A stretch of DNA of 64,000 nt from Candidatus Harrisonbacteria bacterium (GCA_016214655.1 JACROC010000007.1:130647-194646), one strand, 5' to 3'; numbered from the stretch's first letter, positions 4,697 to 46,763 are shown. Notes: generated from the sequence alone by a model not told the origin. Program-made: numbers and translations.

Positions 4697-4745
4697 ATTT
4701 AATTAAAAAAAGAAGGCCCCATTGCGCACGCGCGCCTTGGGGCCT
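4697..4745. terminator. Bidirectional intrinsic terminator between convergent genes
   Basis: GC hairpin aaggcccca...tggggcctt flanked by an A-run and T-run, between the M23 gene (+) and the MBL gene (-). Confidence 0.6.
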
Positions 4746-4750
4746 TTGAA

Positions 4751-6214
4751 TTATAGCTTAATCTTCTGCATGTGTTTGCCGTGAAAGACCGGGATATTCT
4801 GGTTCAGAGCCTGAACTCTTCGCTGGAATCCGGCGACGTTTTCCGCGTCGCCGTGATGAGCGATTATCGCTTCTACCAGGCAGAGCTCGCTCAGAAGTCG
4901 GACGCGCTCCACTAGTTTGTCGGCGGTGTCATGACCGGAAAGGCCGAACCGATAAACTTCGCAGCTCACCGGAACCGGCTTATCCACCTCTCGGCGCTTT
5001 TCTGAATCCCAAGTCCGTAACTTGACGGTGTCGCCCTTCTTCACTTTCAGCACAGCTTCGCCAATGCTGCCGGGGAACATGTAGCCAGTGAAGACTACCA
5101 GTCCCTTGCGATTCGGCAGAATATGCTCAGCGTGCTTGACGCTCATCCCTTTATCCATCATGGCAGAAGAGCTGATGATCGGCGAATAATTGATTCCGCA
5201 ACAGCTTCCTGAATCAGTTGCCAGACGGTGGCTTGCTTCGAGCTGATGCTCTTCAGGCAAGCTGTTCTTGTCCAGTTTCCGGTACAGGATCGCCATTTTA
5301 TTTTCGATCAGCTGATCAATTTCCAGCTTGATATCCTGTTCGCACCAGCGATAAGTATCTTGGGAATGAAGCAGGCAGAATTCCCGAGCCATTCCATCGA
5401 TATGCGTCGCGATGCCAAGGTCGCTCAGTTCCTTGACCAGGTTCGGGGCTCGGTCGGAAAATGAAGGCAGGAGGATTTGGTGCCGCTCCTGAATCATTTT
5501 CTTTACGAATCCGCCGAACTCTGACCAGAGCTCATTAAATGACTTTGGCATTTCGCGGTCGCCATAAGTTGCTTCCGTAATCATGACGATCTGCTTGCCA
5601 TCCAGGCGATTTCCGAAGAATTCGCGCGGAGGAAGCATTACGCCTTTGATGATCGGCTGGTCATGCGAACAGATGTCGCCGGTGATGAAATAAGCCGGGC
5701 CTTCCGGCGGAATGATGAAAATCATCATTGCTCCGCGTGTATGGCCGGCAGAATAAAATCCAAATGACCAGCCGGGCCAGATTTCGTACCAGCCAGGCTT
5801 GCCGATCGGATTGGTTCTTTGGAATAAATTCAAGATATCAGTTTGCGAATAAACGAATGGAGTCGGAGAGCCGCCGGCGCGCCGGACAGCTTTCTGCTCT
5901 GTTTCATAGATTTTCAGAGAATCTTTCAGCATGATTTCCGCGCCCATTGCCGTCGGCCGGGTCATGACGACCATAGCTTTGGGATTGTTGTGGACCAATG
6001 CCGGAAGATTTCCAGAGTGGTCCAGATGATGATGACTAAGCAGAATGAGATCGAGCTTGCCATCGTATTCGGTTTTGGCTGGGAAATAATTTCCGCCTAA
6101 TTTTGCATCGCGGATTCCCATTCCGGAATCAATCGCGATATATTTACCGCAGATATACTGAATATGCCCCGTTGCTCCCGGAGTTATCAACTGTTCGCCT
6201 GCCTGTATGTACAC
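4751..6214 (-). CDS. beta-CASP family MBL-fold nuclease (CPSF73/RNase J-like)
   Basis: MBL motifs HHHLDHSG (HxHxDH), SAGHTRGA, ITGDICS. beta-CASP motifs TEATYGD (A), LSGHDTA (B), IAHHGD (C). GTG start preceded by GGAGG. GC about 50% by eye, well above its neighbours. Confidence 0.7.
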   Translation of the reverse strand: MYIQAGEQLITPGATGHIQYICGKYIAIDSGMGIRDAKLGGNYFPAKTEYDGKLDLILLSHHHLDHSGNLPALVHNNPKAMVVMTRPTAMGAEIMLKDSLKIYETEQKAVRRAGGSPTPFVYSQTDILNLFQRTNPIGKPGWYEIWPGWSFGFYSAGHTRGAMMIFIIPPEGPAYFITGDICSHDQPIIKGVMLPPREFFGNRLDGKQIVMITEATYGDREMPKSFNELWSEFGGFVKKMIQERHQILLPSFSDRAPNLVKELSDLGIATHIDGMAREFCLLHSQDTYRWCEQDIKLEIDQLIENKMAILYRKLDKNSLPEEHQLEASHRLATDSGSCCGINYSPIISSSAMMDKGMSVKHAEHILPNRKGLVVFTGYMFPGSIGEAVLKVKKGDTVKLRTWDSEKRREVDKPVPVSCEVYRFGLSGHDTADKLVERVRLLSELCLVEAIIAHHGDAENVAGFQRRVQALNQNIPVFHGKHMQKIKL

Positions 6215-6447
6215 CTTGCCCTCCTTTTGTTCTTTTTACAAAGAACTCATCCCTCACTTCTATAGAACCAATCGGTCCTTAATTCTTTATATCCACTTTT
6301 ATAAATAGTGACTTTCTTACTTGGTCAACATATTCACAACTTTTTCCAAATTTATAAAAGTGAGGGATAAATTCTCTGTTTTTAGTTTTAAAAAATGAGC
6401 CCAGGGCCCGTGCATCCTTCCGGATGCACGGGCTCCCGGGCTTACTG

Positions 6448-7245
6448 TTAGCGGCGGTTGCCGCCCTTCTTCTTGCTGCCCGTTCCCGTCTGGGAGGCGG
6501 GAACCGCGGCAGGCACGGCTGGCGCCGGCGTCACGGCAGGCGTCGCGCTCGCGACGCTTTCCTTGAGCTGGTCCGCCGCTCCCGCAGGGAGCATCTGACC
6601 CAGCGTCACCGGTTTCGGACCACTGGCCCGCTCCTCGAGCCAGTCCCGAGGCGTCGCATCCTTCAGCTCGCGGTACAGCTTGCGGAACGACCCCGTGCTG
6701 AGCTGGACCGCCGGGGAGTTCTTCTTGTCGCCCCGGAACCGAACTTCCTTGTCCAGCCGTTCGAGGACGTCTTTCACGGCTCTCGCGTTCAGCCCGTGCT
6801 CGGGCTTGTAGTGGACCGCCGCCGCCGCGGGGATGAACTTCACCGTGGTGCGGATGCGCGAGTTGACGATCTTCATTCGATCGTCCTGGCACTCCTCCTC
6901 GGTCTTGAGGATGAAGGCGTGCTTCAGGGCGATGAGGCCGCGGGAGTACCGGTCCGAGAACTCCTTGTCCCACTGCCGCTTACCCTCTTCCCCGCTCATT
7001 GCGAGGATGAAGCCCACCTTCTGCATGTGCGAGGAGCACTCTCGGGCCTGGTCCGGCGTCCAGACGGAGACCGCCGTGCGCAGCTTGTCCGCTGCCGTGT
7101 CGTTCGCCTCACTGAGTGCGCCGAGCTCGGCTACGGGCTTGTTCTCCCGCTTGGCCTTGGCCAGGGCGCTGTACGCATCCGAGGCCGCCAGCGCGAGGTC
7201 GATCACCGCACGGTACTTCTGTTCCAGCTCCATCATTTTGTCCAT
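6448..7245 (-). CDS. Hypothetical protein in a very GC-rich segment, with an Ala/Pro-rich, Lys-rich C-terminal tail
   Basis: Chosen among many overlapping shadow ORFs in this roughly 66% GC segment because it is the longest frame and has an AAGGAG RBS 8 nt upstream of the ATG. No recognisable domain. Confidence 0.5.
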   Translation of the reverse strand: MDKMMELEQKYRAVIDLALAASDAYSALAKAKRENKPVAELGALSEANDTAADKLRTAVSVWTPDQARECSSHMQKVGFILAMSGEEGKRQWDKEFSDRYSRGLIALKHAFILKTEEECQDDRMKIVNSRIRTTVKFIPAAAAVHYKPEHGLNARAVKDVLERLDKEVRFRGDKKNSPAVQLSTGSFRKLYRELKDATPRDWLEERASGPKPVTLGQMLPAGAADQLKESVASATPAVTPAPAVPAAVPASQTGTGSKKKGGNRR

Positions 7246-7331
7246 GGTCTTCTTCTCCTTCCCCTTCTGGGGAAACGATCTGCTTTTTGATGTTGTACAA
7301 GGTACTGACTTTCGTAATTAAATACTAGCAT

Positions 7332-7380
7332 AAAAAAAGACCCTTGTCAATACCCTTTTTGGGGTTTAGTGACAAGGGTC
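7332..7380 (-). terminator. Intrinsic terminator for the 7391..8071 gene
   Basis: 11-bp stem gacccttgtca/tgacaagggtc followed, on the minus strand, by a T-run. Confidence 0.6.
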
Positions 7381-7390
7381 CATGGATGGA

Positions 7391-8071
7391 TTATCGCGGA
7401 AAAGTGGGGAAATTATTAAGTTCCGGCGGCACATTGCCGGCGCTGACCAGACTTACCGTGATGATTCCGCAGCTGCTTTCCAGTGCGGCGTCGATTTTGA
7501 GATATCCGAATTCTAAATTCTTTTCTGAAGGAACCACATTTAATCGGTATTTTACATAAAGCGGATTCCAGACCTCGGTTCTGGAAAAGAAATCCAGGTT
7601 TATGTAGCCAATCGGACTCTTCGGATCTTCGTCTTGGTGCTTGATGAAAAACGGACCATTCTCCGGATATTCCGGGAAAATCGTGAAGCGCTGACAGACT
7701 AATCCTTGAACGGATGCATCCGGCGTTTGCTTGAGATTGAGGCGCTGGAAAAGTTTGGTCAGGCCATCAGGCAACGCCGAGAAAGTGATGCGGAGCGTTG
7801 CACTTGAATTTAAAAGAAAAATTTCTTTTAAGAGGTCGGGATTGTTGGCTTCAGCAGTATGGACTAAGCTAACGGTTTGTGCTGTCGGATGTCCGGGAAT
7901 TCTCAACATGAAATGATCCCGAAGAGCCGGAGTTTCAGCAAAGAGCTTTCCGTAATCCCCGCCTAGGTAGGCGGAAAGTTCGTCCCTTCGGACCGTGGTT
8001 TCCAGGCCGACGCTCAATCCTCCTCCGAGAATGCCGGTGAAGCGAGTCAACTGCTTGACGGTGGTTTTCAC
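7391..8071 (-). CDS. Hypothetical protein, first gene of the GC-anomalous island
   Basis: 226-aa ORF. GTG start with GGAGG 5 nt upstream. No recognisable domain. Confidence 0.5.
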   Translation of the reverse strand: MKTTVKQLTRFTGILGGGLSVGLETTVRRDELSAYLGGDYGKLFAETPALRDHFMLRIPGHPTAQTVSLVHTAEANNPDLLKEIFLLNSSATLRITFSALPDGLTKLFQRLNLKQTPDASVQGLVCQRFTIFPEYPENGPFFIKHQDEDPKSPIGYINLDFFSRTEVWNPLYVKYRLNVVPSEKNLEFGYLKIDAALESSCGIITVSLVSAGNVPPELNNFPTFPR

Positions 8072-8146
8072 ATTTTCCTCCTTTTTACGGATTTTCGAAG
8101 AACTTGAGTCTGGCTATAGTATATAACAAAATTGGTTAATTGTAAA

Positions 8147-8295
8147 GAGCTCACTACCTATCTGTCTACCGGCACCGGAGTCCGTCCCGTCCAGCGCGGG
8201 ACGGCTCCTACGCCTCACCCCGAAAATTTTCGTTTCGCGAAAAACCAATCTTTTCGGGGTTCCGTAGTTGCCGCACGACAGATAGGTAGTTCACC
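8147..8295. repeat. Structured palindromic intergenic element, copy A (multi-hairpin; ends are inverted complements ACTACCTATCTGTC / GACAGATAGGTAGT)
   Basis: About 75% identical to copy B at 33813-33955. Differences between the copies are compensatory inside the hairpins (gtcccg..cgggac versus gccgac..gtcggc). Confidence 0.7.
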
Positions 8296-8334
8296 TTTAA
8301 ATTTGTTTGGGGGTAAGGGTGAATTCCGCTCAAT

Positions 8335-8362
8335 AAAAAATCCGCATACACGTGTATGCGGA
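8335..8362 (-). terminator. Intrinsic terminator of the flotillin-like gene
   Basis: Perfect palindrome tccgcatacacgtgtatgcgga followed, on the minus strand, by a T-run. Confidence 0.65.
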
Positions 8363-8386
8363 ATAGTTAATTACTAAAGTACTAAT

Positions 8387-10213
8387 TTATCCTTGTGCAG
8401 GAGGCTCCTTGTGGCCATTTCCATTCTTTAATCCATTTTGGATAAGACCAGCAAGTAGAACGTTGACGAGAGAGTTTCCCCCATCGCCATTGCCTGTTCC
8501 GCCAGCCATGATGTCCGGCACCAGTTTGATTTTGTTGTCAGCCAGCGCCCGTCCAACTTCCATAATGGCATAATTACTTTGGCCTACGGCATTAGTTTTC
8601 TTTTGGATAACTTCCGCTTCGGCCGTACCGACAGCGGTAGTTTTTTCAGCTTGAGCTTTACCGACAACGGTCAGAACTTCAGCATCAGCTTTAGCGTTAA
8701 CGGTTTTTGACGCTGCTTCACCTTCGGCCTGTTTGACTGCGGCTTGAGCAGTGAACTCGGCGATTGCCACGCTGCGTTCAGCATCAACGACTTTAGCTTG
8801 AGTAGCCGCTTGGGCTTTTGCCTGTTCTAATTCTTTGCGGGTTACCTCTGCGAGTCTTTGAGTTTCGTAAGTAACTTTTTCCTGCTCAGCCAGTTTTCTA
8901 TCGGTAAGTGTTTTCATCAGTTCGGCCGGAGGCACGATATCGCCGATAAGCGTATTCACTGCCCCGACGTTATATTCTTGAAGCGCTTCCGAGATACTCT
9001 TTCTGGCATCTTCCTGCCGTTGTCTTCGCGCTTTTAGGAATTCAATGACATCCGAACTCTGGGCGGCATTCCGGAAATAGTTTCCGATCGTTGGCTCCAG
9101 AACTTGAGTTACCAGATTTGCCACATTACCGAACCGCGCAATCACTAATGGCGCGTCATTCCGGGGAATATGAATTATCTGGCTGACGTCCAGGTTGAAT
9201 GAAAAGCCATCTGAAGACCTGACTGTGATAGTCGAAAGTTTTTCGTCCAGCTTGTGGGATTCGGTTTTGCCGGTTGCCCAGTTAAGGACAACGTTGGCAG
9301 TAGGCACGCACTCCAATTTGTGGGTATAGGGATTAATCGGATATTTCCCTGGATCAAGGGGGTCGGCCCAGACGCCTTTTTGTCCCCTGCTTACCAAGTT
9401 GCCGTGCTTGAATTCTTTGCCGCTGACATCAACGCCTTCTGCGCCGACATAGGCGATTACCACACCGACGTGGGCAATGGGAACCGTAGTCATTTCCTTA
9501 AGTTCCACGGTGGCGAAACGCGGGTTGATGAAATATCGTCCGGCCAGCATGACTTGTTCCTGTAAGCCTTTAAATCCGCCATTATCCAGGAAGGCTTGTC
9601 CGTCCTGGAACATGTTATGATTTTGGATTTCTCCGCCGGCAATCTCGCCGGTCTTAAGCGACTTTCCTTCTTTAGTGGTGACAACTCCGACCATATTATC
9701 GTCGATTTCGAGGACCGATTCTTCGGTCACAGAGAAAAGCGCCGTGTTGATCCGGTATGTCCCCGGAGGGATAACCGTAATTTGCGGACCGCGCTCACCG
9801 CCATTCTGGAGAAACGTTCTGGCATCTTGAAATGAATTACAGTCTACCTTTTTTGCAAGAACGCGACCCGCTGCGAGCGGACGGCCGTCGCTGGATTCAA
9901 CCACGCCAATTTTACCCTCTTGAATAGTGGTAAATTTTTGCAGAGTGACCAGATATTGCCATGGCCACAGCCAAAAGTGTACTCCTGGCGCGAGTGTATC
10001 TGCCTGGAGGCCAGCTTCGCCGTTTAAGGCGACGATAGCTCCATCGGGCAGAGTCCGGTTTTTGCCGATGATTACGAACTTCTTATTCACAACGCCCAAA
10101 GAGTCCTCGGGAATCAATACCACTCCGAATACGCGAAGCACCAATTTATAGCCAAATAAAAGCGCTACGATTGGTAATAGCCACAATAGACGCATTAATG
10201 TCTCTACGTTCAT
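8387..10213 (-). CDS. Flotillin-like SPFH/band-7 domain membrane protein (YqiK-like)
   Basis: N-terminal TM. SPFH-like core. Long Ala/Glu/Lys/Gln-rich coiled-coil segment (AEQEKV...AKAQAATQAKV...) typical of flotillins. AAAGGAGGTG RBS. Confidence 0.7.
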   Translation of the reverse strand: MNVETLMRLLWLLPIVALLFGYKLVLRVFGVVLIPEDSLGVVNKKFVIIGKNRTLPDGAIVALNGEAGLQADTLAPGVHFWLWPWQYLVTLQKFTTIQEGKIGVVESSDGRPLAAGRVLAKKVDCNSFQDARTFLQNGGERGPQITVIPPGTYRINTALFSVTEESVLEIDDNMVGVVTTKEGKSLKTGEIAGGEIQNHNMFQDGQAFLDNGGFKGLQEQVMLAGRYFINPRFATVELKEMTTVPIAHVGVVIAYVGAEGVDVSGKEFKHGNLVSRGQKGVWADPLDPGKYPINPYTHKLECVPTANVVLNWATGKTESHKLDEKLSTITVRSSDGFSFNLDVSQIIHIPRNDAPLVIARFGNVANLVTQVLEPTIGNYFRNAAQSSDVIEFLKARRQRQEDARKSISEALQEYNVGAVNTLIGDIVPPAELMKTLTDRKLAEQEKVTYETQRLAEVTRKELEQAKAQAATQAKVVDAERSVAIAEFTAQAAVKQAEGEAASKTVNAKADAEVLTVVGKAQAEKTTAVGTAEAEVIQKKTNAVGQSNYAIMEVGRALADNKIKLVPDIMAGGTGNGDGGNSLVNVLLAGLIQNGLKNGNGHKEPPAQG

Positions 10214-10334
10214 TTACCAACACCTCCTTTCCGTTTTTAGTTGTCGTGGCCAAAACAATCCGGCCACGAGCTTGTTGGAGAATACCATATCTATTTATTT
10301 AAGTCAATAAATTTTAAAGTCTTTACAAATACAG

Positions 10335-10700
10335 ATGGCGATATTACACTTTTATCATATGAAACATTTAACAGAAAAAGATTTACAGGCACTTAAAGAA
10401 CAATTAGAAAAAGAAGCCGGTGAGTTGGAGGCGCAGTTGACGGCAGCTAAAAAGGGTTCGGATTTCGGAAACGATGTGGAATCTGATTTTTCCGAAGAAG
10501 CGGATGAAGCTGAAGAGTTTGCGGCCAACCTAGGCATGCAAGATTCTCTTAAAGGCAGGATGCAAGATATTGAAAATGCCTTGGATAAAATGCTTCGCGG
10601 TGAATACGGGAAATGCGAGAAATGCGGGATGGATATTCCGATGGAAGTCCTGAAAGTGAATCCGGAATCGAGATTGTGTAAGGATTGCAAAGTAAAATAA
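10335..10700 (+). CDS. DksA/TraR-family C4-type zinc-finger protein
   Basis: C-terminal CEKCGMDIP...RLCKDC four-Cys finger preceded by a coiled-coil and acidic region. Start may be the internal M at 10359. Confidence 0.65.
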   Translation: MAILHFYHMKHLTEKDLQALKEQLEKEAGELEAQLTAAKKGSDFGNDVESDFSEEADEAEEFAANLGMQDSLKGRMQDIENALDKMLRGEYGKCEKCGMDIPMEVLKVNPESRLCKDCKVK

Positions 10701-14101: not shown

Positions 14102-16210
14102 TTATTTACTTAATTGTTTGATTGAAAGACCAACTTTGCCGTTTTCCATTTTTACGATTTTTGCCCTGACAAAATCACCTAATTTTAAGACATCTTCTAC
14201 CTTTTTGACGTAGCCGTCTTTTAATTCGGATACATGAATCATGCCGTCTTTGCCGGGACTGAATTCAACTATGGCTCCGAATTCTAAAATTTTTATCACC
14301 GTCCCCTCTACTATGTCGCCAACTTTATATTCTTTGGCGATTCCTAAAACCTGATCGTAAGCTTTTTGGGCCGTATCTTTATCTGTGGCGGTAATGAAAA
14401 CTCTGCCGTCATCTTCTATGTCTATTGAAGTTACGCCAGTGGCTTCAATTATTGCATTGATTACTTTGCCTCCCGGACCGATGACCTCGCCGATAAGTTC
14501 CGGATTAATCTGCAGACTAAGAATTCTCGGAGCAAAGGCGGAAAGTTCAGCTCTTGGTTCTGGTAAAGCTTTAACTATAGTTTCTAAAATGTGCAACCGA
14601 GCTTCTTTGGCTTGAGCCAGGGTTTTGCTGAGCATTTCAGGGGTGACGCCAAGAATTTTTACATCCATTTGGATAGCGGTGACGCCATTTTTAGTGCCGG
14701 CCGCTTTAAAATCCATATCGCCGTGGTGGTCTTCCGGTCCTTGGATATCGGTCAGAACTTTAAAATCCTCCCCCTTTTTATCTAATATCAATCCCATGGC
14801 AATTCCGGCCGCCGGTCCTTTAATCGGCACTCCGGCGTCCATTAAGGATAAGCTGCCGGCGCAAACCGATGCCATTGAAGATGAGCCGTTAGACGATAAA
14901 ATTTCGGAAACTAATCTGATGGTGTACGGAAATTTATCTTGCGTGGGTATCAGGGCGCGCAGAGCTTTTTCTGCCAATGCGCCATGGCCGATTTCTCTTC
15001 TGCCAGGCCCCCTCATTGCGCCGACTTCTCCGGTAGAAAATGGCGGGAAATTATAGTGGAGCATAAACCGGCGCTTGCCGGAAAATTCAATAGTATCTAC
15101 TAACTGTTGGTCGCCTGGGGCGCCAAGAGTGGTAAGCGCCAGGGATTGGGTATTGCCGCGGACAAAGAGCGCTGAGCCGTGGACTCGTTTTAACAACCCC
15201 ACTTCGGCATAAAGATCCCGGACTTGATTTAGTTTGCGGCCATCCGGGCGTTTTTCTTCCGCAAGGATTTTTTCATGGAGTAATTCGTCAATTTCTTTAT
15301 CAAAAAGAGTTTCAGCACCGGCAATGTCTTTTTCCGAGTAATCTTTTTCAGCTAGAGCAGTCTTCATTTTACCCTTTAAGGATTCCAGATTTTCTTGCCT
15401 TTCTACCTTGGTTTGGGTATAGAGCGCAGACTCCAGTTTATTTTTCAAAAATTCTTTTACAAATTTTACGATTTCCTGATTGGGTTCAGCTAAATCAACT
15501 TTTTCTTTTTCTTTGCCAGTTTCTTTAATCATATTTTTTTGGAAATTTACCAGGCTAGCAATTTCTTTTTGCGCCATTTCAAAAGCGGCTACTACATCTT
15601 TTTCATTGGCTTCATCTCCGCCAAGTTCAACCATGTTGATCCGGCTGTTAGTGCCGGCAATTAAAGTTTCAAATTCTATTTCTTTATCTTTGAACTCGCT
15701 GGTTTTTGGATTAAGAAGCAGAGCTGGATCATTTTTCAATTTTACTATTTTTACTCCTGCCACCGGACCGTTCCAGGGGATAGAAGAAATCGCCAGCGCA
15801 GCGGAACTGGACAGCAGGCTGATAAAATCTAAATCATTTTCGCCGTCAAAAGATAGGACAGTTATTACCACTTGAACTTCCCTTCTGGTTGCCTGATTAA
15901 ATAATGGCCGTATAGTCCGGTCAACAATGCGGCCGGTCAGAATCGCCTCATCTGAAGACTTTCCTTCACGGCGCATAAAGCGGCTCCCGAGGATTTTCCC
16001 GGCCGCATAAAATTTTTCTTCATAGTTGACCATCAGCGGAAAATAATCTCCATCTTTATCTTCTTTGCTCATGACTGCGGTTGCAAGGACGGTGGTGTCT
16101 CCATAAGTTCCGATCACGGCGGCATTGGCCTGTTCGGCAATGCGGGAAACTTCCAAAGTCAGCGGTTTGCCAGCGAATTCCATTTTAAATTGTTTTCTTT
16201 GTAAATCCAT
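14102..16210 (-). CDS. pnp: Polyribonucleotide nucleotidyltransferase (PNPase)
   Basis: Two RNase PH-like domains, KH and C-terminal S1 domain. Classical rpsO-pnp arrangement. Confidence 0.9.
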   Translation of the reverse strand: MDLQRKQFKMEFAGKPLTLEVSRIAEQANAAVIGTYGDTTVLATAVMSKEDKDGDYFPLMVNYEEKFYAAGKILGSRFMRREGKSSDEAILTGRIVDRTIRPLFNQATRREVQVVITVLSFDGENDLDFISLLSSSAALAISSIPWNGPVAGVKIVKLKNDPALLLNPKTSEFKDKEIEFETLIAGTNSRINMVELGGDEANEKDVVAAFEMAQKEIASLVNFQKNMIKETGKEKEKVDLAEPNQEIVKFVKEFLKNKLESALYTQTKVERQENLESLKGKMKTALAEKDYSEKDIAGAETLFDKEIDELLHEKILAEEKRPDGRKLNQVRDLYAEVGLLKRVHGSALFVRGNTQSLALTTLGAPGDQQLVDTIEFSGKRRFMLHYNFPPFSTGEVGAMRGPGRREIGHGALAEKALRALIPTQDKFPYTIRLVSEILSSNGSSSMASVCAGSLSLMDAGVPIKGPAAGIAMGLILDKKGEDFKVLTDIQGPEDHHGDMDFKAAGTKNGVTAIQMDVKILGVTPEMLSKTLAQAKEARLHILETIVKALPEPRAELSAFAPRILSLQINPELIGEVIGPGGKVINAIIEATGVTSIDIEDDGRVFITATDKDTAQKAYDQVLGIAKEYKVGDIVEGTVIKILEFGAIVEFSPGKDGMIHVSELKDGYVKKVEDVLKLGDFVRAKIVKMENGKVGLSIKQLSK

Positions 16211-16318
16211 AAACTATGATACTAATATACTAATTCTACTAATGATACGAATAATACTAATTCTTTTTTATATTCGTATGATTGGTATCATTCGCATGCA
16301 TTCGTATATTGGTATCGC
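16205..16318 (-). repeat. AT-rich roughly 105-nt intergenic repeat, copy 1 (immediately upstream of pnp)
   Basis: Its reverse complement matches the copies at 46665-46760 and 56889-56992 (gcgataccaatatac.aatgcatgcgaatgatac ... attcgtatcattagta.aatt.gtatattagtatcatag). Contains internal direct sub-repeats ataccaata and attcgtat. Confidence 0.8.
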
Positions 16319-16319
16319 A

Positions 16320-16820
16320 TTACTTTTTTAATAATACTCTTGGCAATTTTTCTAAATCTACGAATTCGTCGGCCGCTTCCTTTATTTTGGCAGAAGTACT
16401 TCGGCCAAAAGCGGCGACTTCTACTGTCCGTCCGGCGCCCCATTTTAGATATTCTACCAGCGGTACAAAATCACCATCGCCGGTCACTAAGATGACTACG
16501 TCCAGGAGATTGGACATCCGAATGGCGTCTACTGCCATACCCACGTCCCAGTCGGCTTTTTTCATGCCGCCGGCGAAAATTTGTAAATCTTTACTTCTTA
16601 ACTCCAGCCCGCTTTTTATCAAAGCATCAAAAAATGCCGCTTCCCCTTCGGCGGTTTCACTTTTAACTACATAAGCGATGGCCGTAATTAATTTTCGGCC
16701 GCTAACCAATTCTTTTAAGAGTTCTTTATAGTTGACTCTGGCGTGGTATAAATTTTTTGCCGAGTGATAGAGATTTTGTATATCAATAAAAATACCAACT
16801 CGCTGATCCCTTCTTTTCAA
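16320..16820 (-). CDS. NYN/LabA-like (PIN-fold) domain protein
   Basis: VGIFIDIQNLYH N-terminus and LVTGDGDFVPLV motif typical of NYN/DUF88 proteins. Inserted between rpsO and pnp. Confidence 0.7.
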   Translation of the reverse strand: MKRRDQRVGIFIDIQNLYHSAKNLYHARVNYKELLKELVSGRKLITAIAYVVKSETAEGEAAFFDALIKSGLELRSKDLQIFAGGMKKADWDVGMAVDAIRMSNLLDVVILVTGDGDFVPLVEYLKWGAGRTVEVAAFGRSTSAKIKEAADEFVDLEKLPRVLLKK

Positions 16821-19600: not shown

Positions 19601-19748
19601 GTATACATATACTATTTATATTAAAAGAAAACGTCACCTTTGACAACACCATCATTTTATGCTATTTTATGGATAGTGTAAACTCCTGTTAATTCGCCTA
19701 AAGCGAATGCGGGATGAGCTTGAAATCTAAACAAAGGAGGTGGAAAGT

Positions 19749-20567
19749 ATGACTTGGTTGCTAGTGGTTGTGATTCTGGCGCTGATAGCCTGTTCGGTGG
19801 TTTCAACCCTTATGCAGGTGCCGGCATATACGGCTGTTTTATTGGAAAATAGAATTTCTGGATCAGTCCGTTCTATCGGACCGGGGATTCACTTCATATT
19901 TCCCTGGGAAAAGATTGTTCCAAATTCAGAAACGGTTATTAAAAAAAGCAGCCATTTGTTCCCGGCTGATTTTGAGACTAAGAATCACAAAGTCATTTCG
20001 TTGAAGGTTGCTTTTGATCTGATACCGGACGTGAATAATCTCAGAGGTTATATTGCTTTTGATGAAAGAACCAGAATAGCTGGAATTACAGAGAGAATAA
20101 AGTCTATTTTGAGCAACCTGATTAGGGAAATGAAGGATCGCGAAGAGGTTATGGCGAAGTTTAAGGAAATTGGTCCGAGGGTTAAAGATATTTTCGAGCA
20201 GACTTTATCCGAGGATGGGAAAAGACTGGAGTACTATTACGGGATTGATTTGAAGGTTCTGATGATTCCAGATGTTGAGCTTCCTAAGGAGTTGAAGGAG
20301 GCAAGCATTCGGCAGGAAGCTACAAAGAAAGATAACGAGACTCGAAAATTAGAGATGACTAATATGAAAAAGATGGCCATGGATTTAGTGAAGGCGTCTG
20401 GTGGCACGATGCCGCTTGAGGTTGCTATGGAAATTATGCAGTTGCAGTTTGGCAAGGGCAACGTGAAGAAAGAGCTTCATCGGTTCGGTTTGGATCGCGG
20501 AACGCAAGAGATGGTTCTGAAGTTTCTGGAAAAGATTCCGGAGCTGATCAATGCCTTCCGATCCTAA
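19749..20567 (+). CDS. SPFH/band-7 domain protein
   Basis: N-terminal TM then IGPGIHFIFPWEKI, which resembles the SPFH/HflK core. AAAGGAGGTG RBS 6 nt before the ATG at 19749. Confidence 0.55.
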   Translation: MTWLLVVVILALIACSVVSTLMQVPAYTAVLLENRISGSVRSIGPGIHFIFPWEKIVPNSETVIKKSSHLFPADFETKNHKVISLKVAFDLIPDVNNLRGYIAFDERTRIAGITERIKSILSNLIREMKDREEVMAKFKEIGPRVKDIFEQTLSEDGKRLEYYYGIDLKVLMIPDVELPKELKEASIRQEATKKDNETRKLEMTNMKKMAMDLVKASGGTMPLEVAMEIMQLQFGKGNVKKELHRFGLDRGTQEMVLKFLEKIPELINAFRS

Positions 20568-21051: not shown

Positions 21052-21435
21052 TTATCTTCCACTTGTTTGTAAGAAATTTGCTATGATAGCGGTGGCGCTA
21101 TAAGCCGCTAAGCCAATTACAATAGCGATAATTGAGTAGATTAATTGATTTTTGGCTTTACTAACCTGTTCAGCTTCTCCGCCCGCAGTCAGGTAAAGAT
21201 AGCCCGCATACAACATGAAGACAATTGCTAGACTGAAAAATACTATTCCAGCCGTATTGGTAAATTGTCTAACAATATTCTCAACTGTCGTGAAAGAAAT
21301 TGCACTCGGAGGTAATTGTCCTGTTCCCGCTTCACCGGGCACCTGAAATCCTCCTCCTCCTACTGCCAATGCAGTGCTAACCAAGGCCAGATTTAATAGA
21401 GTTACGCCCGAGACCATTTTTATTAAATTTTTCAT
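21052..21435 (-). CDS. Pilin-like small secreted protein with VirB2/TrbC-type topology, paralog 1
   Basis: Signal peptide, then two hydrophobic helices separated by a conserved charged loop TAGGEAEQVSKAKNQ. This is one of four tandem paralogs. Confidence 0.5.
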   Translation of the reverse strand: MKNLIKMVSGVTLLNLALVSTALAVGGGGFQVPGEAGTGQLPPSAISFTTVENIVRQFTNTAGIVFFSLAIVFMLYAGYLYLTAGGEAEQVSKAKNQLIYSIIAIVIGLAAYSATAIIANFLQTSGR

Positions 21436-21553
21436 ATTTTTTTTAAAACAATTAAGTAATTACGTATTTTACTGAATTGCTTATTATTTTATTTTTTGAT
21501 GCTTCGACCTTTCCGGAACTTATTTTAATTATATAATAATTATAACACAATCA

Positions 21554-21868
21554 TTATACACCAAGTAAATTCCTGACAATATATATTATGCCGGTAGCAG
21601 AAAGTAAAAGTACGGCAGCAATGATGGTCCAAGTGACAATGCGCCTTCCTTTAGTGATTTTTTCCGTATCGCCGCCCGCAGACATAATCTGAAAAGCTCC
21701 CCAAAGAAGCATTAGGGTAATGATGGGCGTCCCGATTCTTAATAGCCAGCCGCTGATTTGGTTTATAATTTGGCTGACATCTTCGGTGCCAAGCGGATTT
21801 TTAACTGTAAAACTTACTGAAGAAAATAATAAAGTTTGAAATGAAATTTTTTTAAAAATATTTTTCAT
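21554..21868 (-). CDS. Pilin-like small protein (VirB2/TrbC-type topology), paralog 2
   Basis: Signal peptide; loop motif SAGGDTEKITKGRR between two TM helices. Confidence 0.5.
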   Translation of the reverse strand: MKNIFKKISFQTLLFSSVSFTVKNPLGTEDVSQIINQISGWLLRIGTPIITLMLLWGAFQIMSAGGDTEKITKGRRIVTWTIIAAVLLLSATGIIYIVRNLLGV

Positions 21869-21876
21869 AAAATCTC

Positions 21877-22278
21877 TTATTTGCCGCTCAGCACGTTTTT
21901 AATGATTAAATTTATGCCAGCCGCCACCAGCAAAAGGAGGTAGCCGACAATGGCCCAGGTGATAGTGCGCCGGCCTTTGGAAATTTGCTCTTCATTGCCG
22001 GCGGCGGTCAGGATTTGCAACGCGCCCCAAATAATCATTAAGGTCAGCATGGCGGTTCCCAGCCAGAGCAGAAATTCGCCGATTCTGGCGAAAAGTTTGG
22101 TGATGTCGGTTCCGGTACCGAGCGGATTTGGAAGGTCGTATGTCCTATTTGCGTCCCTTGTTAATATATCAGTCCCCCCGGCAGTTTTTTGAATCGTATC
22201 TCCATTAACTTCTAACGGATTTATTAAAAGCGGAGCTAGTAGTAACAACAGAAAAATTGTAAATATTTTTTTACTCAT
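21877..22278 (-). CDS. Pilin-like small protein (VirB2/TrbC-type topology), paralog 3
   Basis: Signal peptide; loop motif TAAGNEEQISKGRR between two TM helices. Confidence 0.5.
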   Translation of the reverse strand: MSKKIFTIFLLLLLAPLLINPLEVNGDTIQKTAGGTDILTRDANRTYDLPNPLGTGTDITKLFARIGEFLLWLGTAMLTLMIIWGALQILTAAGNEEQISKGRRTITWAIVGYLLLLVAAGINLIIKNVLSGK

Positions 22279-22283
22279 TTATT

Positions 22284-22700
22284 TTAAGATGATTCTACTT
22301 GGCAGGTTATTTGGCTCCAGGGCCTGATTGATTTTGAGTCGGTTAAGTAGCGGAGTAGTCCGCCGACAAAGATCCAGGATACTAACATGATAATCAGTCC
22401 GGTTACGGTAATGGTAATAACCTGCTTCCCTTTGGTTATTCTTTCTTCTGATCCGCCGGCAGTCATAATCAGGAATCCGCCCCAGGCAAAAAATACTCCG
22501 CCGAGCGCTATGGCCAGATCCCTCATTAGTTCCGTAATATTATTAGCTAAGACTAGAAGCTGGCAGAGGTCGCATTCCGGCACTGGCCGGCCGGGACCGC
22601 AGGGAACCAGCGGTTCTCTTGCCAGAACAAAGTCGTTGGAAATTATTAATAAAAAAATGGAAATTATCACCCAATAATATATTTTGTTTTTCGTATTCAC
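22284..22700 (-). CDS. Pilin-like small protein (VirB2/TrbC-type topology), paralog 4, with a Cys-rich insert
   Basis: Signal peptide, CGPGRPVPECDLC segment, loop motif TAGGSEERITKGKQ between two TM helices. Confidence 0.5.
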   Translation of the reverse strand: MNTKNKIYYWVIISIFLLIISNDFVLAREPLVPCGPGRPVPECDLCQLLVLANNITELMRDLAIALGGVFFAWGGFLIMTAGGSEERITKGKQVITITVTGLIIMLVSWIFVGGLLRYLTDSKSIRPWSQITCQVESS

Positions 22701-22704
22701 ACCT

Positions 22705-24015
22705 TTATTTCCCTCGTTGCATTAATTCGGTGACCTGTTTTTCTCCTTGTGATAATGCCTCCAGTGGTTTTAATTTGCCGGATACCACTGCCCCGATCAT
22801 TCCGGAAAAGATTTGGTCTATTGGTTCTTTATCTATGCGCGGCCAGGATTTGGCGGACAGAGCTTGTTTTACAAAAACTCCCAGTTCTGGATGATTTGCG
22901 TATTTTTGAATTAGAGATCGGAGCGCCGGCGGATTATCAGAGGCAATAAGATAATCTTCAGCCGCTTTTTCATAAGTAGTCAAAAATAGTACCAGATTCC
23001 AGGCCCAATCTGGATTTTGGCTGTTGTTAGTTACGGCCAGTCCCCAATAATCCGGATAGTTCACCGCTTTTTCGGTAGTAGAAGGCTGCGGCATAGCGGC
23101 TACCCGGAAATTTAAAAATGGATTTTTGGCCAGGATAGTTTTTCTTTGGGAAGCATAATTGAAAATCATCGCTAGGTTGCCCTTGGCAAAGCTGTTCAAT
23201 GAATATTCCTGATCATCGTTCCAGGTATAAGCCAGATCCTTGGAGTTGCTGAATTTAGTATAGAAATTCAAGCCGTCTAAACCGGCGTTGCGTCCCTCAA
23301 CATTGCCAGTGAAAGTTGCCTCGGTAAATTCTTCATTGGTCATTTTAGTTCCGGCTTGTAAGAGAAGAAGCATCAGCAGGTCCGAAGCTTTATCCATGGA
23401 ATTATTTGAACCGCCAATGGCTGCGGCCGGTTTGACCAGGTTTCCAAGGGAGTCCAGGCGCCTTAATTTATCAACGATATTCTGAAAATCCAGCCAATCC
23501 TGCGGTTCCAGCGCTATGCCATTTTTATCAAAAATGTCTCTGTTATAAAATAGCGCCAAGGTATCTATATATAATGGAAGCGCGTATATTTTCCCCAATG
23601 AGGAAAAATCCTCTTTTATAACTCCCGGAAATAGGTTATCTAGATCGATGACGGAAATTTGATCTTCTTTGGCTGGAATAATTTTGTCAGAATGTTTTGG
23701 CAGCCAGGAGCTGTGAAATGAGACAATATCCGGACCTTTTTTGGTGGCGAGGGCGTTAATTAGGTCGATTTCCAGGGTTTCGGGATCTACTTTTTTGTAA
23801 TCAACTGTGATATTGGGCTGAAATTGCTTATAAAGTTTGAAATTATTTTCAAACCAGCTTGGGTCATCAACCCCCCAAATAGTTAAAGTAATTCTGGGCG
23901 GCGCTTCTGGAATCACCTTAAGTCCCGGGATAATGCCGGTGAAAACTCCGACAAAAAATAAAACTACAACGAGAACGGCGGCTATAACTACAAGTTGCGG
24001 GCGGGAAAGTTCCAT
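22705..24015 (-). CDS. Extracellular solute-binding protein (ABC-type SBP family 1, MalE-like), membrane-anchored
   Basis: N-terminal TM anchor and sugar-type SBP fold features. No permease or ATPase genes adjacent. Confidence 0.6.
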   Translation of the reverse strand: MELSRPQLVVIAAVLVVVLFFVGVFTGIIPGLKVIPEAPPRITLTIWGVDDPSWFENNFKLYKQFQPNITVDYKKVDPETLEIDLINALATKKGPDIVSFHSSWLPKHSDKIIPAKEDQISVIDLDNLFPGVIKEDFSSLGKIYALPLYIDTLALFYNRDIFDKNGIALEPQDWLDFQNIVDKLRRLDSLGNLVKPAAAIGGSNNSMDKASDLLMLLLLQAGTKMTNEEFTEATFTGNVEGRNAGLDGLNFYTKFSNSKDLAYTWNDDQEYSLNSFAKGNLAMIFNYASQRKTILAKNPFLNFRVAAMPQPSTTEKAVNYPDYWGLAVTNNSQNPDWAWNLVLFLTTYEKAAEDYLIASDNPPALRSLIQKYANHPELGVFVKQALSAKSWPRIDKEPIDQIFSGMIGAVVSGKLKPLEALSQGEKQVTELMQRGK

Positions 24016-24046
24016 AATTTAATTATACAACAATAAGTCTTATTGG

Positions 24047-26503
24047 TTATAAACAGATCACTCCCATTACTTTGTCGCCGGAAGCGACGTTCATGATGCG
24101 GACGCCTTGAGTGGCGCGACCGCTTGAGCGGATACTTTCCAATTGGGTCCGGATAATTTGTCCTTTAGCAGAAAGAGCTAAAACCTCTTTTTCTTCGTTG
24201 ATTATTAAAGAGGCGATGACTGATCCGGTTTTCGGCGTAACTTTAGCAGTTTTGATGCCTGATCCGCCCCGTCCTTGCACTTTATATTCCGAAAGCGGAG
24301 TTTTCTTTCCGAAGCCGTTGGCCATGACCGCCAGAAGCTGGCCCTTTTCATTTTCTTTAGTGACGATATTGAGGGCGACTACGGAATCGCTTTTTTTAAG
24401 CCGGATGCCCCGGACGCCGGAGGCAGTCCGGCCCATCGGGCGTATTTGTGATTCTTTAAAGCGGATGGCTTGGCCGTTGGCAGTGGAAAGGGCGATTTGA
24501 TCATTGCCTGAAGAAAGCCGAACCCACTGGAGCGAATCCCCCTTTTTGAGTTTGATGGCGATGATGCCGCTGCGGCGGACATTGGAAAAATCTCCCAGAG
24601 CGGTTTTTTTAATGACGCCATTTTTTGTAACCATAACCAGATATCCCGGGAGTGATTTTTTTTCGCCTGGATAAGCAATAATGGCATTTACTTTTTCTTC
24701 AAGAGGAATTTCCAGGAAATTATGGAAAGCCTTGCCTTTAGCGATTCGGCTGGCTTCCGGGATTTCGTAAACTTTAGTCTGGAAAACCCGCCCGCGTTCA
24801 GTGAAGAACAGTATATTGTCATGAGTGTTGGATGTCATGAAGTGGCTGAGAAAGTCTTCCTCGCCAACATCGGAACCAATTAATCCCTTCCCGCCTCTTT
24901 TTTGGGATTTAAAACTGGACGGCGGGACTCTTTTGATGTAGCCGCTCCGGGACATGGTAATAATGGTTTCTTCTTTTGGTACCAGATCTTCTTCTTTAAA
25001 TTCTTTGAGACCGCCGGAAACTAATTTGGTTTTTCTCTGATCGCCGTATTTTTCTTTCATTTCTTTCAGTTCGTCTCTGATGACTTTCAGAATTTTCGCC
25101 GGGCTCTTCAGTAGGGCCTGCAACTCCTCAATTAATTTTTTCTTTTCTTTAAGTTCGTCCTCGATTTTTTGTCTTTCCAGTGAAGCGAGGGTTTGCAGTT
25201 TCATTTCCAAAATCGCAGTGGCCTGGATATCGGTGAATTTGAATTTAGCAACTAAGTTTTTGTGGGCATCTTCACGGTCTTTAGATTTTTTGATGGCAGT
25301 GATTACCGCATCGATGTTGCCGAGCGCTTTATGTAAACCCATTAAAATATGAGCGCGTTCCTCGGCTTTTTTCAGGTCGAACTCCGCCCGTCGGCGGACA
25401 ATCTCTTTCCGGTGTTCAATATAGGCGAGCAGAATATCTTTCAGGGACATTACTTCCGGCTGAAGGCCGTTTCTAGTCAGGGCAATCATATTCAGATTAA
25501 AATTTTTCTGAAGATCAGTGAATTGGAATAATTGGTTTAGAACTTTTTGCGGCGCCGCGTCATTTTTAAGTTCAATGACAATGCGCAGGCCATCTTTATC
25601 GGATTCATCACGCACGTCGCGCACGCCTTGAATTTTTTTCTCAGTTATCAGTTCGGCGATTCTGATAATTAACTCTGATTTATTAACCTGATACGGAATT
25701 TCAGTTATTTCGACGTCGTATTGATCTTTTTTTCTTTCGGTCACTTCGGTTCTGGCCCGGCAGGTGATAGCTCCGTGGCCAGAAGCGTAAGCTTCGTTAA
25801 TAGCTTTTTTGTCATAGATAATGCCGCCAGTCGGAAAATCCGGACCTTGAATTAATTCCATTATTTCTTCGGTGGTGGCTTTTGGATCCTCGATTAATTT
25901 CGCAGTTGCATCAACTAATTCGCTTAAATTGTGGGGCGGAATATTGGTAGCCATACCAACGGCAATGCCAACAGTGCCATTGAGTAAAAGATTGGGAACT
26001 TTGGCTGGTAAAACTTTGGGCTCCTGGCGGCTGCCGTCGTAGTTCGGAGACCAGTCCACGGTTTCTTTTTCGCTATCCACCAGCATTTCTTCGGCGATTT
26101 TGGAAAGCCGGGCTTCGGTGTACCGGTAAGCGGCCGCGGAATCGCCGTCAATACTGCCGAAGTTTCCTTGTCCGTCAACCAGCGGATAACGGAGCGAAAA
26201 TTCCTGGGCCATGCGCACCATGGCTTCGTATACCGAAGAATCGCCGTGCGGGTGGTATTTACCAAGCACTTCACCGACGATATTAGCTGATTTTTTGAAT
26301 TTAGCCGCGTGGGTAAGCCCGCTGTCCCACATTGCCCAAAGGATTCTTCTTTGCACCGGCTTTAATCCATCGCGGACATCCGGGAGGGCGCGGGAAACAA
26401 TGACTGACATTGCGTAGTCCAGGTAGGATTCTTGAAGTTCTTCGGTTATTTCCCTTTTTTCCAAGCCGCTATCATTAAGTTTGAGTTTTTCTTCTTTGGC
26501 CAT
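24047..26503 (-). CDS. gyrA: DNA gyrase subunit A
   Basis: N-terminal [19 protein letters not shown], catalytic-Tyr region, C-terminal beta-pinwheel repeats. 818 aa. Confidence 0.9.
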
Positions 26504-32842: not shown

Positions 32843-33271
32843 TTACCGCATGGTATAAGGGAATGGCGCGTCGCTGCTGAGGTTTTCGATGGGCCGAACC
32901 AGTATCTTGCCGGCTTTGGAGGCTTCGCAGTCAAAGGTGCAATCTGCCACCTTGCCTTGATCGAAACCAACATCGCGGTAAAGGAAGCTGATTCTGATTT
33001 TGGCCCACTGTCGACTTATCGACATGATGCCCTCGGCCTTGATCAGTCCCTCCACCCAGTTCTTTTTTTCATCGCCAGGCGAATAGACGCGGATCTTCAT
33101 CGAGAGGCGACGCTGATCCTGGTACTCCAGCCCTTCCCGGCTTTCGATGTTGAGGTCTGATTCCACCCAGCGTCCATTGACCTGCGCCATCGAGCAGAGT
33201 CCTCGATGTTGAAGGATCGCCCTCACCATTTCAATGGCGAGGCTAGTCGTCTGACTGTGGCTGATTTTCAT
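32843..33271 (-). CDS. Hypothetical protein in a GC-rich islet next to tRNA-Ile
   Basis: ORF trimmed to MKISHSQTT... where an AGGAG RBS lies upstream. GC is noticeably higher than the flanks. No recognisable domain. Confidence 0.45.
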   Translation of the reverse strand: MKISHSQTTSLAIEMVRAILQHRGLCSMAQVNGRWVESDLNIESREGLEYQDQRRLSMKIRVYSPGDEKKNWVEGLIKAEGIMSISRQWAKIRISFLYRDVGFDQGKVADCTFDCEASKAGKILVRPIENLSSDAPFPYTMR

Positions 33272-33472
33272 TGTTTTTTCTCCTGTCGTAGGATTCGTCA
33301 GCCGAAGGCTGGCGCGCTGTTGTCTCAACAGCGATTTAGCAAGAAGTTTTCCGACCAAATCGCTGCTGAGAAGATTTTAAAAGAGCTTTATTCTTATAAA
33401 TATATTATACCATATTGGAGTAATTTGTCAATAGTTGGAAAAAGTGTTACTTTAGAGTAAAATATTTTTAAT

Positions 33473-33545
33473 GGGTGCGTAGCTCAGCGGTTAGAGCTTT
33501 CGTCTTATACACGAATGGCCCCTGGTTCGAATCCAGGCGCACCCA
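33473..33545 (+). tRNA. tRNA-Ile (anticodon UAU as encoded), no encoded CCA
   Basis: Manual fold: acceptor gggtgcg/cgcaccc, D-stem gctc/gagc, anticodon stem ttcgt/acgaa with loop ctTATac, T-stem cctgg/ccagg, discriminator a followed by caaaa. Confidence 0.7.
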
Positions 33546-33552
33546 CAAAATT

Positions 33553-33804: not shown

Positions 33805-33812
33805 ATTTTGCG

Positions 33813-33955
33813 TTCGCTACCTATTTGCCTACCGGTACCGGCGTTCGCCGACTCCTGCGGTCGGCGTCGCCTACGCCTCGCCGCGATTTTTTGCTTCGCA
33901 AAACCAAGCAAATCGCGGCTCCGTAGTTACCGCACGACAGACAGGTAGCTCACTT
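33813..33955. repeat. Structured palindromic intergenic element, copy B
   Basis: Homologous to copy A (8147-8295) along its full length with compensatory substitutions in the hairpins. Ends are inverted complements GCTACCTATTTGCCTACCGG / CCGCACGACAGACAGGTAGC. Confidence 0.7.
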
Positions 33956-37284: not shown

Positions 37285-37296
37285 TGTGCGCCTCCT

Positions 37297-46565: not shown

Positions 46566-46664
46566 TCAGCGGAGCTTTAGGATCTTGACAAATCCTACTT
46601 TGTTGTCTATTATTATTGTAATGATTGATTGTCCGCCGAGAGCGGACATTTTATTAAAAACAAT

Positions 46665-46760
46665 CGCGATACCAATATACTAATGCATGCGAATGATACC
46701 AATAATACAAATTCGCATTTATTCGTATCATTAGTACAATTCGTATATTAGTATCATAGT
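46665..46760 (+). repeat. AT-rich intergenic repeat, copy 2 (immediately upstream of nusA; has a central deletion relative to copies 1 and 3)
   Basis: cgcgataccaatatactaatgcatgcgaatgataccaata...attcgtatcattagtacaattcgtatattagtatcatag ends 3 nt before the nusA ATG. Confidence 0.8.
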
Positions 46761-46763
46761 TTT

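Follow-up and report, generated by a model that had tools for sequence, protein, structure and literature searches.

When a few adjacent genes of a bacterial genome differ from their surroundings in base composition and translation signals, it has to be asked whether they arrived recently from elsewhere or have long belonged where they stand. The question is raised by three genes in a 64,000-nucleotide (nt) stretch, hereafter the window, of a Candidatus Harrisonbacteria metagenome-assembled genome, where the gene for a predicted beta-CASP nuclease follows those for two proteins of 226 and 265 amino acids (aa), which we call p226 and p265 (the two proteins HZB99_04395 and HZB99_04400). An initial annotation, made from the sequence alone, had read them as a horizontally acquired island. 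We find instead that they form an old, chromosomally fixed, clade-specific locus of tiny groundwater Harrisonbacteria-like bacteria of the Candidate Phyla Radiation (CPR), and not a recent island. What makes this locus interesting is that one gene, p265, has kept an extreme composition and that nucleases of two families replace each other behind a leader that stays conserved; that the locus serves as a defence or RNA-processing system, as first proposed, is possible.

The three open reading frames (ORFs), each confirmed in translation where the initial annotation had placed it, are the following:

4751-6214, minus strand: gene of the beta-CASP nuclease (slot 3 of the locus), 487 aa, GTG start, Shine-Dalgarno (SD) site AAAAGGAGGG
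6448-7245, minus strand: p265, 265 aa, ATG start, SD site GAAGGAGAAG (AAGGAG at 7260-7255)
7391-8071, minus strand: p226, 226 aa, GTG start, SD site AAAAAGGAGG (AAGGAGG at 8083-8077)

Composition was measured against the 47 other ORFs of the window, whose GC content at third codon positions (GC3) is 0.413 ± 0.065 with a maximum of 0.63. All three genes deviate, as first noted: p265 by far the most (GC 0.65, GC3 0.87, z 7.0), followed by the beta-CASP gene (GC 0.51, GC3 0.59, z 2.7) and p226 (GC 0.49, GC3 0.53, z 1.8). The GC jump is sharp at 6448 and 7245, matching the start and stop codons of p265, and the GC-elevated stretch runs on to 10213, through a flotillin (SPFH-domain) gene. The strong SD sites and the two GTG starts can be read directly in the sequence. 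SD matches of 5 nt or more precede all four genes of the GC-elevated stretch, as against 7 of the 47 other ORFs, so that the contrast drawn in the initial annotation is real, while its wording, that native genes almost never have an SD, was slightly overstated. Numerous native genes lack an SD and show instead a TATAAT-like box that lies 6-12 nt upstream of the ATG (e.g. 22705-24015, 52804, 57264 and 30715), which suggests that leaderless or very-short-leader mRNAs are widespread in this Harrisonbacteria genome. Two further GC outliers on the minus strand, the ORFs at 32843-33358 (GC3 0.63) and 37004-37672 (GC 0.55), have no Pfam match.

Related loci were gathered by searching protein collections, metagenome contigs and GTDB genomes with p226 and p265, after which the encoding contigs were looked up. 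They represent about 13 distinct lineages (L001/L004/L010, L002, L003, L005/L011, L006, L007/L008, L009, L012, L013, L014-16, L017, L018/19, L020 and L021). The gene order is conserved: ComM and a divergent DksA/TraR gene, then p226, p265 and a nuclease gene read in one direction, then a convergent M23/LysM peptidase gene and UvrD. This order recurs in full in L001/L010, L007/8, L009, L011/5, L012, L018 and L021; the shorter contigs L002, L006, L014 and L017 show part of it. Flanking genes of the related lineages are saturated, or nearly so, at synonymous sites, with a synonymous divergence (dS) ranging from ~1 in the closest informative pair up to values that are not computable, and the three-gene arrangement is therefore old.

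This record bears directly on the idea of a recently acquired horizontal island encoding an undescribed defence system, which we now regard as quite improbable. The genes do resemble classical genomic islands in their deviant composition and in translation signals unlike those of the rest of the window, and the fast-evolving proteins and interchangeable nuclease effectors described below are typical of defence systems; the beta-CASP protein, moreover, is about as near to Cas14, the type VII CRISPR effector, as to aCPSF1. Far from being absent from the same site in relatives, however, the genes occupy it in the ~13 lineages found through p226 or p265, their position being fixed in all relatives found, between these saturated or nearly saturated flanks. 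Between 3659 and 10700 neither an integrase or transposase gene nor a tRNA or direct repeat flanks them. Their compositional anomaly, unlike that of islands, is conserved and does not decay toward the host, and the expectation of a defence cargo meets neither a PADLOC model match nor a p226 homologue on viral contigs. Deviant GC and strong SD sites alone should accordingly not be taken to indicate a recent island.

The same comparison disposes of an assembly chimera, in which a high-GC fragment would have been joined into a low-GC contig. The sharp jumps at 6448 and 7245 are what such a joint would leave, but identical junctions recur in independent assemblies (ENA, JGI, Logan and NCBI), which share the arrangement, the GC-rich gene in the same place and the conserved flanking untranslated regions. 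As these assemblies come from four sources, with different samples and pipelines, a chimera is excluded, and we assign it next to no probability.

If the locus is old, why is p265 so rich in GC? Across all alleles its GC3 ranges from 0.60 to 0.97, and from 0.67 to 0.97 where neighbours are visible, with 9 of 12 alleles above 0.75: 0.88 in L010, 0.89 in L011, 0.76 in L006, 0.79 in L007, 0.83 in L009, 0.95 in L012, 0.88 in L017, 0.87 in L018 and 0.97 in L021, a genome of ~58% GC with a background GC3 of ~0.7; then 0.67 in L014 (a short contig) and 0.73 in L020 and 0.60 in L013 (single-gene contigs). Wherever neighbours can be compared p265 is the gene of highest GC3, usually followed by the nuclease gene (0.46-0.72) and p226 (0.43-0.85). 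Its third positions avoid A (A3 ~0.07) and T (T3 ~0.05) alike, with G3 about equal to C3, and codon choice is inverted, AAG accounting for 78% in p265 and AAA for 78% in native genes. In close pairs, third positions vary less in p265 than in p226, with a dS of 0.13 versus 0.27 between L006 and L007, and of 0.27 versus 0.71 between the window and L002, over 51 codons only.

This richness is kept although p265 alleles share only 23-30% protein identity, and is therefore a conserved property rather than a scar of transfer. Foreign composition normally drifts toward that of the host; such drift would have been expected long ago, and since the richness has been retained, some force must maintain it. 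We know of few comparable cases of a gene holding a GC3 of ~0.9 amid a GC3 of ~0.4 while its alleles have diverged almost to saturation as proteins. One that invites comparison is the vls locus of Borrelia, whose hypervariable coding region remains far GC-richer than its AT-rich genome across divergent lineages, in association with recombination. The p265 locus is unlike vls in that no paralogues or silent cassettes occur in the window, and p265 is unlike GC-rich antigenic-variation loci in having no marked GC skew, signal peptide or surface features.

Structure in the p265 mRNA was assessed against synonymous-codon shuffles, yielding z values of -1.5 to -6.5 (mean -3.9, n = 10) for p265 and of -2.0 ± 0.94 (n = 21) for neighbouring genes. 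As an explanation of the GC richness, extra mRNA structure is suggestive only. Stable folding could equally be looked for if the DNA had a hidden second function, either an antisense gene or a structured non-coding RNA overlapping p265, and the codon-aligned antisense frame is indeed fully open in 8 of 11 alleles. We nevertheless consider a second function very improbable. The antisense frame is interrupted by 1-5 stops in L013, L014 and L017, and CTA, TCA and TTA, which would be stops in the antisense frame, are shunned no more strongly than the other codons ending in A, so that the open frame is a by-product and an overlapping antisense gene was rejected. Rfam contains no known RNA family matching the region, and conservation is on the side of the sense protein, whose gene has its SD, start codon and terminator at each locus.

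The nuclease slot offers the second unusual property of the locus. The 487-aa protein of the window carries the metallo-beta-lactamase (MBL) motifs HHHLDHSG, AGHTRGA and ITGD (Lactamase_B, 22.9 bits for a cut-off of 22.7) and the beta-CASP motifs TEATYG, SGHD and AHHGD (Pfam Beta-Casp, 37.1 bits for a cut-off of 27.7, E-value 5e-9). Every motif on which the initial identification had relied was thus recovered, and the assignment to beta-CASP holds. The protein consists of the MBL and beta-CASP domains only, with neither KH nor C-terminal extra domains. Its matches in the PDB are TTHA0252 (2.8e-17), Ysh1 (1.3e-16), CPSF73 and Cas14; in NCBIfam it scores 9e-29 with aCPSF1 and 3e-27 with cas14, both far under the respective cut-offs, and only two weak phage matches were found. 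More specific assignments were tried and rejected: RNase J, because neither NCBIfam nor Pfam returned a model of that family and the protein stops right after motif C; aCPSF1/FttA, because the match begins at position 226 of the 631-position model, lacks the KH region and reaches 100 bits for a cut-off of 580; and Cas14 of type VII CRISPR-Cas, because the score is 95 bits for a cut-off of 800. By its sequence, the window protein is an ordinary new member of its family, with the catalytic motifs intact.

The nearest solved structures by sequence, TTHA0252 of T. thermophilus and the eukaryotic Ysh1/CPSF73, are stand-alone beta-CASP RNases that likewise consist of MBL and beta-CASP domains only, with the metal-binding motifs and motifs A-C, the similarity to TTHA0252 being remote (E-value 1e-17, half-length coverage). 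The window nuclease differs from them in following two clade-specific proteins and in alternating with a TRAX-like nuclease; to our knowledge, no comparable partner proteins have been described for TTHA0252. Cas14 shares with it a detectable sequence similarity and offers the example of a beta-CASP nuclease acting as an interchangeable defence effector. Apart from the low score, the setting differs, since a repeat scan revealed no CRISPR-like array and no cas family, cas7 and cas5 included, was found among the window ORFs scanned, the cas scan not being exhaustive.

A nuclease gene lies downstream of p265 in all 11 distinct loci whose downstream gene is visible, and its family varies. Slot 3 harbours a beta-CASP gene in seven lineages, namely the window, L011 (91% identical to the window protein), L012 (74%), L018 (71%), L009 (58%), L014 (45%) and L021. 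In four others (L001/L010, L006, L007/8 and L017) it is occupied by a TRAX/C3PO-like family of 239-261 aa. The beta-CASP nuclease is therefore not a constant member of the locus and is interchangeable with a TRAX/C3PO-like one. The latter family matches NCBIfam PRK14562 (7e-11) and no Pfam model; when its profile was compared with the PDB, the only matches at E < 0.1 were NEQ131 of N. equitans and AfTRAX of A. fulgidus (E ~0.06). Four acidic residues, E104, E107, D148 and E152, are invariant in the family and correspond to E-x-x-E...D-x-x-x-E, the metal-binding catalytic tetrad of HsTrax and NeC3PO (PMC5100593). The alternative slot-3 protein is thus a predicted TRAX/C3PO-like nuclease with an intact catalytic tetrad, resembling prokaryotic C3PO in its PRK14562 and PDB matches; the similarity is weak, and the gene belongs to relatives and not to this window. 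The prokaryotic C3PO/TRAX-like examples known to us are homo-octamers without dedicated neighbouring partners. A literature search on beta-CASP proteins in Patescibacteria and on TRAX in bacterial defence returned nothing relevant. In L021, the 58%-GC relative, an extra gene of 389 aa stands between the beta-CASP and M23 genes (8362-9531); its 'DHHG' motif had led us to consider a DHH phosphoesterase, an assignment for which Pfam found no match.

The segments that separate the genes, and that would control their expression, are these:

4697-4745: hairpin terminator shared by the convergent beta-CASP and M23 peptidase genes, with a stem AAGGCCCC...GGGGCCTT followed by a T-run (minus strand)
6215-6447, minus strand: p265 terminator (~6390-6443), then the slot-3 promoter and a leader in which a small hairpin precedes the SD
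7246-7390, minus strand: p226-p265 intergenic unit, comprising a terminator hairpin (7380-7339), a T-run, a promoter, a leader and an SD
8072-8131, minus strand: p226 promoter and leader, with promoter-like hexamers reaching 8168 (sites 8146-8118 and 8168-8139)

A hairpin with a T-run follows each gene (~4697-4745, 6390-6443 and 7332-7380). In the p226-p265 unit a promoter scan identified TTGACA-17-TAGTAT, with 10 of 12 matches and a TG extension, in which the -35 TTGACA (7350-7345) sits in the 3' (descending) arm of the p226 terminator hairpin and the -10 TAGTAT lies at 7327-7322. The leader that follows, of ~75 nt, contains an ACAACA motif and then a hairpin CCCCAGAAGGGG (7272-7261) just before the SD. 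The core TTGACA..TTTTTTTATG.TA.T is invariant in seven loci (the window, L002, L006, L007, L009, L010 and L011), between coding sequences that are only 25-45% identical, and in the leader hairpin both arms change with pairing kept (CCCC/GGGG, GCCC/GGGC and GCC/GGC). Upstream of p226, window positions 8131-7089 align with L002 and 8150-8089 with L011 at ~84%; more generally, DNA identity between the window and L011 is 83-86% across the promoters, terminators and leaders that separate the genes.

Upstream of slot 3, a promoter-like hexamer TTGACC is found at 6328-6323, and the region lies inside an 86%-identical blastn segment shared with L011 (window 6464-5529). Window positions 6443-6278 also match L010 at 69%, even though L010 carries a TRAX-like gene; the predicted slot-3 promoter and leader are thus conserved across the nuclease swap. 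The arms of an 11-bp inverted repeat, at 6368-6358 and 6259-6249, lie on either side of the promoter-like region upstream of the nuclease gene; comparison by eye with L010 shows two stem positions changed on both sides with pairing kept, and the repeat could be an operator pair or form a structure in a read-through transcript.

As p226, p265 and the nuclease gene each have a promoter-like site and an SD, both strong, and end in a terminator of their own, they are predicted to be separately transcribed. This layout weighs on a further alternative, a toxin-antitoxin-like system in which the nuclease would be the toxin, p265 a labile antitoxin and p226 a third component. A small helical protein with a disordered C-terminus upstream of an RNase does recall the type II layout, and toxin swapping is known in toxin-antitoxin systems. 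Between p265 and the nuclease gene, however, stand a strong terminator and a separate promoter, which therefore leave no co-transcription or translational coupling. The nucleases are moreover large (487 aa) and of housekeeping type, whereas toxin-antitoxin pairs are bicistronic small genes, and the locus is single-copy, fixed and non-mobile, with no PADLOC matches. We judge this alternative improbable.

How p226 and p265 themselves evolve was examined by comparing the window with L011. Nonsynonymous divergence (dN) is low in the flanks (dN ~0.055, dS ~1.05), with ComM (dN 0.053, dS 1.12) and DksA (dN 0.060, dS 1.02), and in the beta-CASP gene (dN 0.058, dS 0.43), and reaches 0.56 for p226 and 1.03 for p265 (dN only). 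In close pairs dN/dS is ~0.13 for p226 and ~0.4 for p265, low values from which clock-like divergence would underpredict the window-L011 distances 2.5- to 4-fold. Alleles and flanks are also incongruent: the p265 of the window is only 25% identical to the L011 allele although the flanks are 90% identical, and 46% identical to that of L012 although the flanks are distant (M23, 59%), which implies allele exchange or long-lived allele classes. Both genes thus diverge much faster than their flanks, with allele relationships that disagree with those of the flanks, and appear to be exchanged by recombination.

The proteins themselves offer few clues. p265 comprises an all-helical domain (residues 1-205) with a conserved T-L-G-E/D-x-L motif, followed by an Ala/Pro-rich disordered linker and a basic tail. 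Its family profile gave only noise against PDB sequences, and the sole match in Pfam, NCBIfam, PHROGs and PADLOC, of no practical use, was phrog_35287 (E = 0.0013). The possibility that it is a cryptic translin was rejected after hhalign against the TRAX-like family gave a probability of 0.1. Homologues of p226 (35-83% identity) adjoin DksA at the same position in 10 other lineages, with invariant residues that include E24, H71, C126, R128, E137 and D160, a WNPL motif and a C-terminal TFP motif. No match to p226 was found in Pfam, NCBIfam, PHROGs, PADLOC or the PDB, where its family profile gave noise, and an AlphaFold2 model built from a four-sequence alignment was unusable (pLDDT 42). The order of the invariant His71 and Cys126 ('LVCQRF') recalls caspase-like proteases, an assignment that no model or profile supports and that we do not claim. 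In PADLOC-DB 2.0, no defence match was obtained for p226 or p265, the only match being that of PDC-M48B to the MBL N-terminus of the nuclease (E = 0.012).

What, then, might the three genes do? The reading we tentatively favour, plausible to us without being probable, is that p226, p265 and the nuclease constitute a clade-specific module for the cleavage of single-stranded nucleic acid, with the GC richness of p265 held by a force at the nucleotide level. The three genes would act together in cleaving single-stranded nucleic acid, most likely RNA. p265 would serve as nucleic-acid-binding partner or gatekeeper of the downstream nuclease, by means of its helical domain and basic disordered tail, and p226 would be an accessory factor. 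The rapid turnover of alleles may point to a conflict-type role, such as a response to phage or foreign RNA or a discrimination of self from non-self; housekeeping would fit it less well. The force that keeps p265 GC-rich would bear on the nucleotide sequence itself, our preferred candidate being selection for a GC-rich, strongly folded p265 mRNA able to survive in an AU-rich transcriptome under an active nuclease, with possible contributions from allele flow out of higher-GC relatives (e.g. L021) or from GC-biased gene conversion. We hold these inferences on the three genes (the module, the p265 gatekeeper, the conflict role and the mRNA protection) with moderate to low confidence.

The principal competing explanation is that the three genes are neighbours by descent only, functionally unrelated and adjacent through the stability of the region; p265 might then be a structural or nucleoid-type protein made in abundance, to take one example, and its GC would stem from biased gene conversion at a recombination hotspot or from alleles flowing in from higher-GC relatives. 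Several observations would follow naturally: the surrounding genes are all equally syntenic, each of the three has its own promoter and terminator, and the allele class of p265 is independent of the type of nuclease. Recombination is evident from the allele incongruence in a clade whose GC spans 38-58%, and the near equality of G3 and C3 is as predicted by biased gene conversion. Descent alone does not readily account, however, for two unrelated nuclease families in one slot with the same conserved leader before it, an alternation that is difficult to understand unless a nuclease is required there. Nor would conversion tracts need to respect start and stop codons, where the GC step of p265 is sharp, and the GC3 of p265 exceeds the background even in the high-GC L021 (0.97 vs ~0.7). 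We consider mere neighbourhood possible but rather unlikely.

Several points weigh against a cleavage module. What ties the three proteins together is indirect; their genes form separate transcription units, and since every gene of the region is syntenic among relatives, their linkage could be inherited rather than functional. The allele classes of p265 are uncorrelated with the type of nuclease, which makes a specific interface between p265 and the nuclease less credible. p226 is missing from L017, and relatives without either gene would have been missed, p226 or p265 having served as search queries. The excess folding of p265 mRNA is modest in a test in which every gene is negatively biased, and the notion of a nuclease-resistant mRNA is a conjecture. 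Finally, none of the three proteins matches a known defence family in PADLOC, no relative of p226 was found on the viral contigs of IMG/VR, and p265 has no informative fold match.

The boldest form of the module, to which we give only an outside chance, is that p265 is composition-locked, its folded GC-rich mRNA escaping an AU-preferring single-strand nuclease encoded next door, be it beta-CASP or C3PO-like, so that the partner or regulator is still made. Selection would hold p265 at a GC3 of 0.85-0.97, in genomes with a GC3 of 0.35-0.7, while protein identity falls to 23%. If true, p265 would still be made while the neighbouring nuclease clears AU-rich self or invader RNA, and a composition-locked p265 would represent an undescribed principle of self-protection in an RNA-targeting conflict system.

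The remaining part of the GC-elevated stretch is distinct from the gene set and comprises:

8132-10370, minus strand: 2.2-kb insertion particular to this lineage, lying between DksA and the promoter of p226, not part of the gene set
8387-10213, minus strand: SPFH/Band-7 (flotillin-like) gene, 608 aa, ~50% GC, with a very strong SD AAAGGAGGTG (Band_7, 5.5e-27)

The insertion contains a Y-shaped element (8147-8295), a terminator and the SPFH gene with its promoter. In L002, ~60 nt stand in its place, and DksA is directly divergent from p226 in L002, L011, L001, L009, L007, L018 and L021. Of the two bounds initially drawn around the supposed island, the terminator at 4697-4745 is present, but the palindromic element at 8147-8295 belongs to this separate insertion and marks no edge of the three genes. 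The element, of ~150 nt, occurs twice in the same orientation, as copy A (8147-8295) at the edge of the flotillin insertion and as copy B (33808-33953) after a tRNA-Ile(TAT) and a small ORF; over the 3' 57 nt the copies agree at 82%. The predicted fold is a Y-shaped three-way junction, whose minimum free energies, one for each strand, are -77.5 and -87.9 kcal/mol (z ~-9.4 and ~-10.1), and Rfam offers no match. The element could be a small RNA gene or an element resembling either a miniature inverted-repeat transposable element or an att site.

Other features were recorded elsewhere in the window. The tRNA-Ile mentioned above (33473-33546) has a TAT anticodon that reads AUA directly; it is unusual in bacteria, where a modified CAT tRNA mostly reads AUA. 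A second SPFH/Band-7 gene (19740-20567, 1.8e-6) and a gene with an ATP-dependent DNA ligase domain (34624-35625, 6e-8) both have SD-like sites. Four tandem paralogous genes on the minus strand (21052-22700) encode type IV secretion system pilins (PF18895, VirB2/TrbC-like; E-values 1e-8 to 1e-13), and the large ORFs beside them (22705-26503) may be the rest of the secretion system. An AT-rich repeat of the ATTCGTATCATTAGTA... type, ~50-110 nt long, is present in three copies (16211-16333, 46656-46762 and 56875-56994), at least two of which end right at the ATG of a gene (14102-16210, minus strand, and 46764, plus strand); the repeat may be a promoter or leader element that several genes have in common. 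Imperfect repeats of the TAGGGTTTAGGGTATAGGG type lie 288 nt apart at 1050-1080 and 1338-1368, in or near the ORF at 860-1675.

RNA metabolism and the defence repertoire are poorly known in CPR bacteria. The nuclease swap behind a conserved control region, beside two hypervariable proteins confined to the clade, points to an uncharacterised nuclease-based function in these organisms. The p265 locus also isolates a force acting on base composition; the mRNA or DNA may be under selection, gene conversion may be biased, or alleles may flow in one direction, and the natural set of p265 alleles is available to separate these forces.

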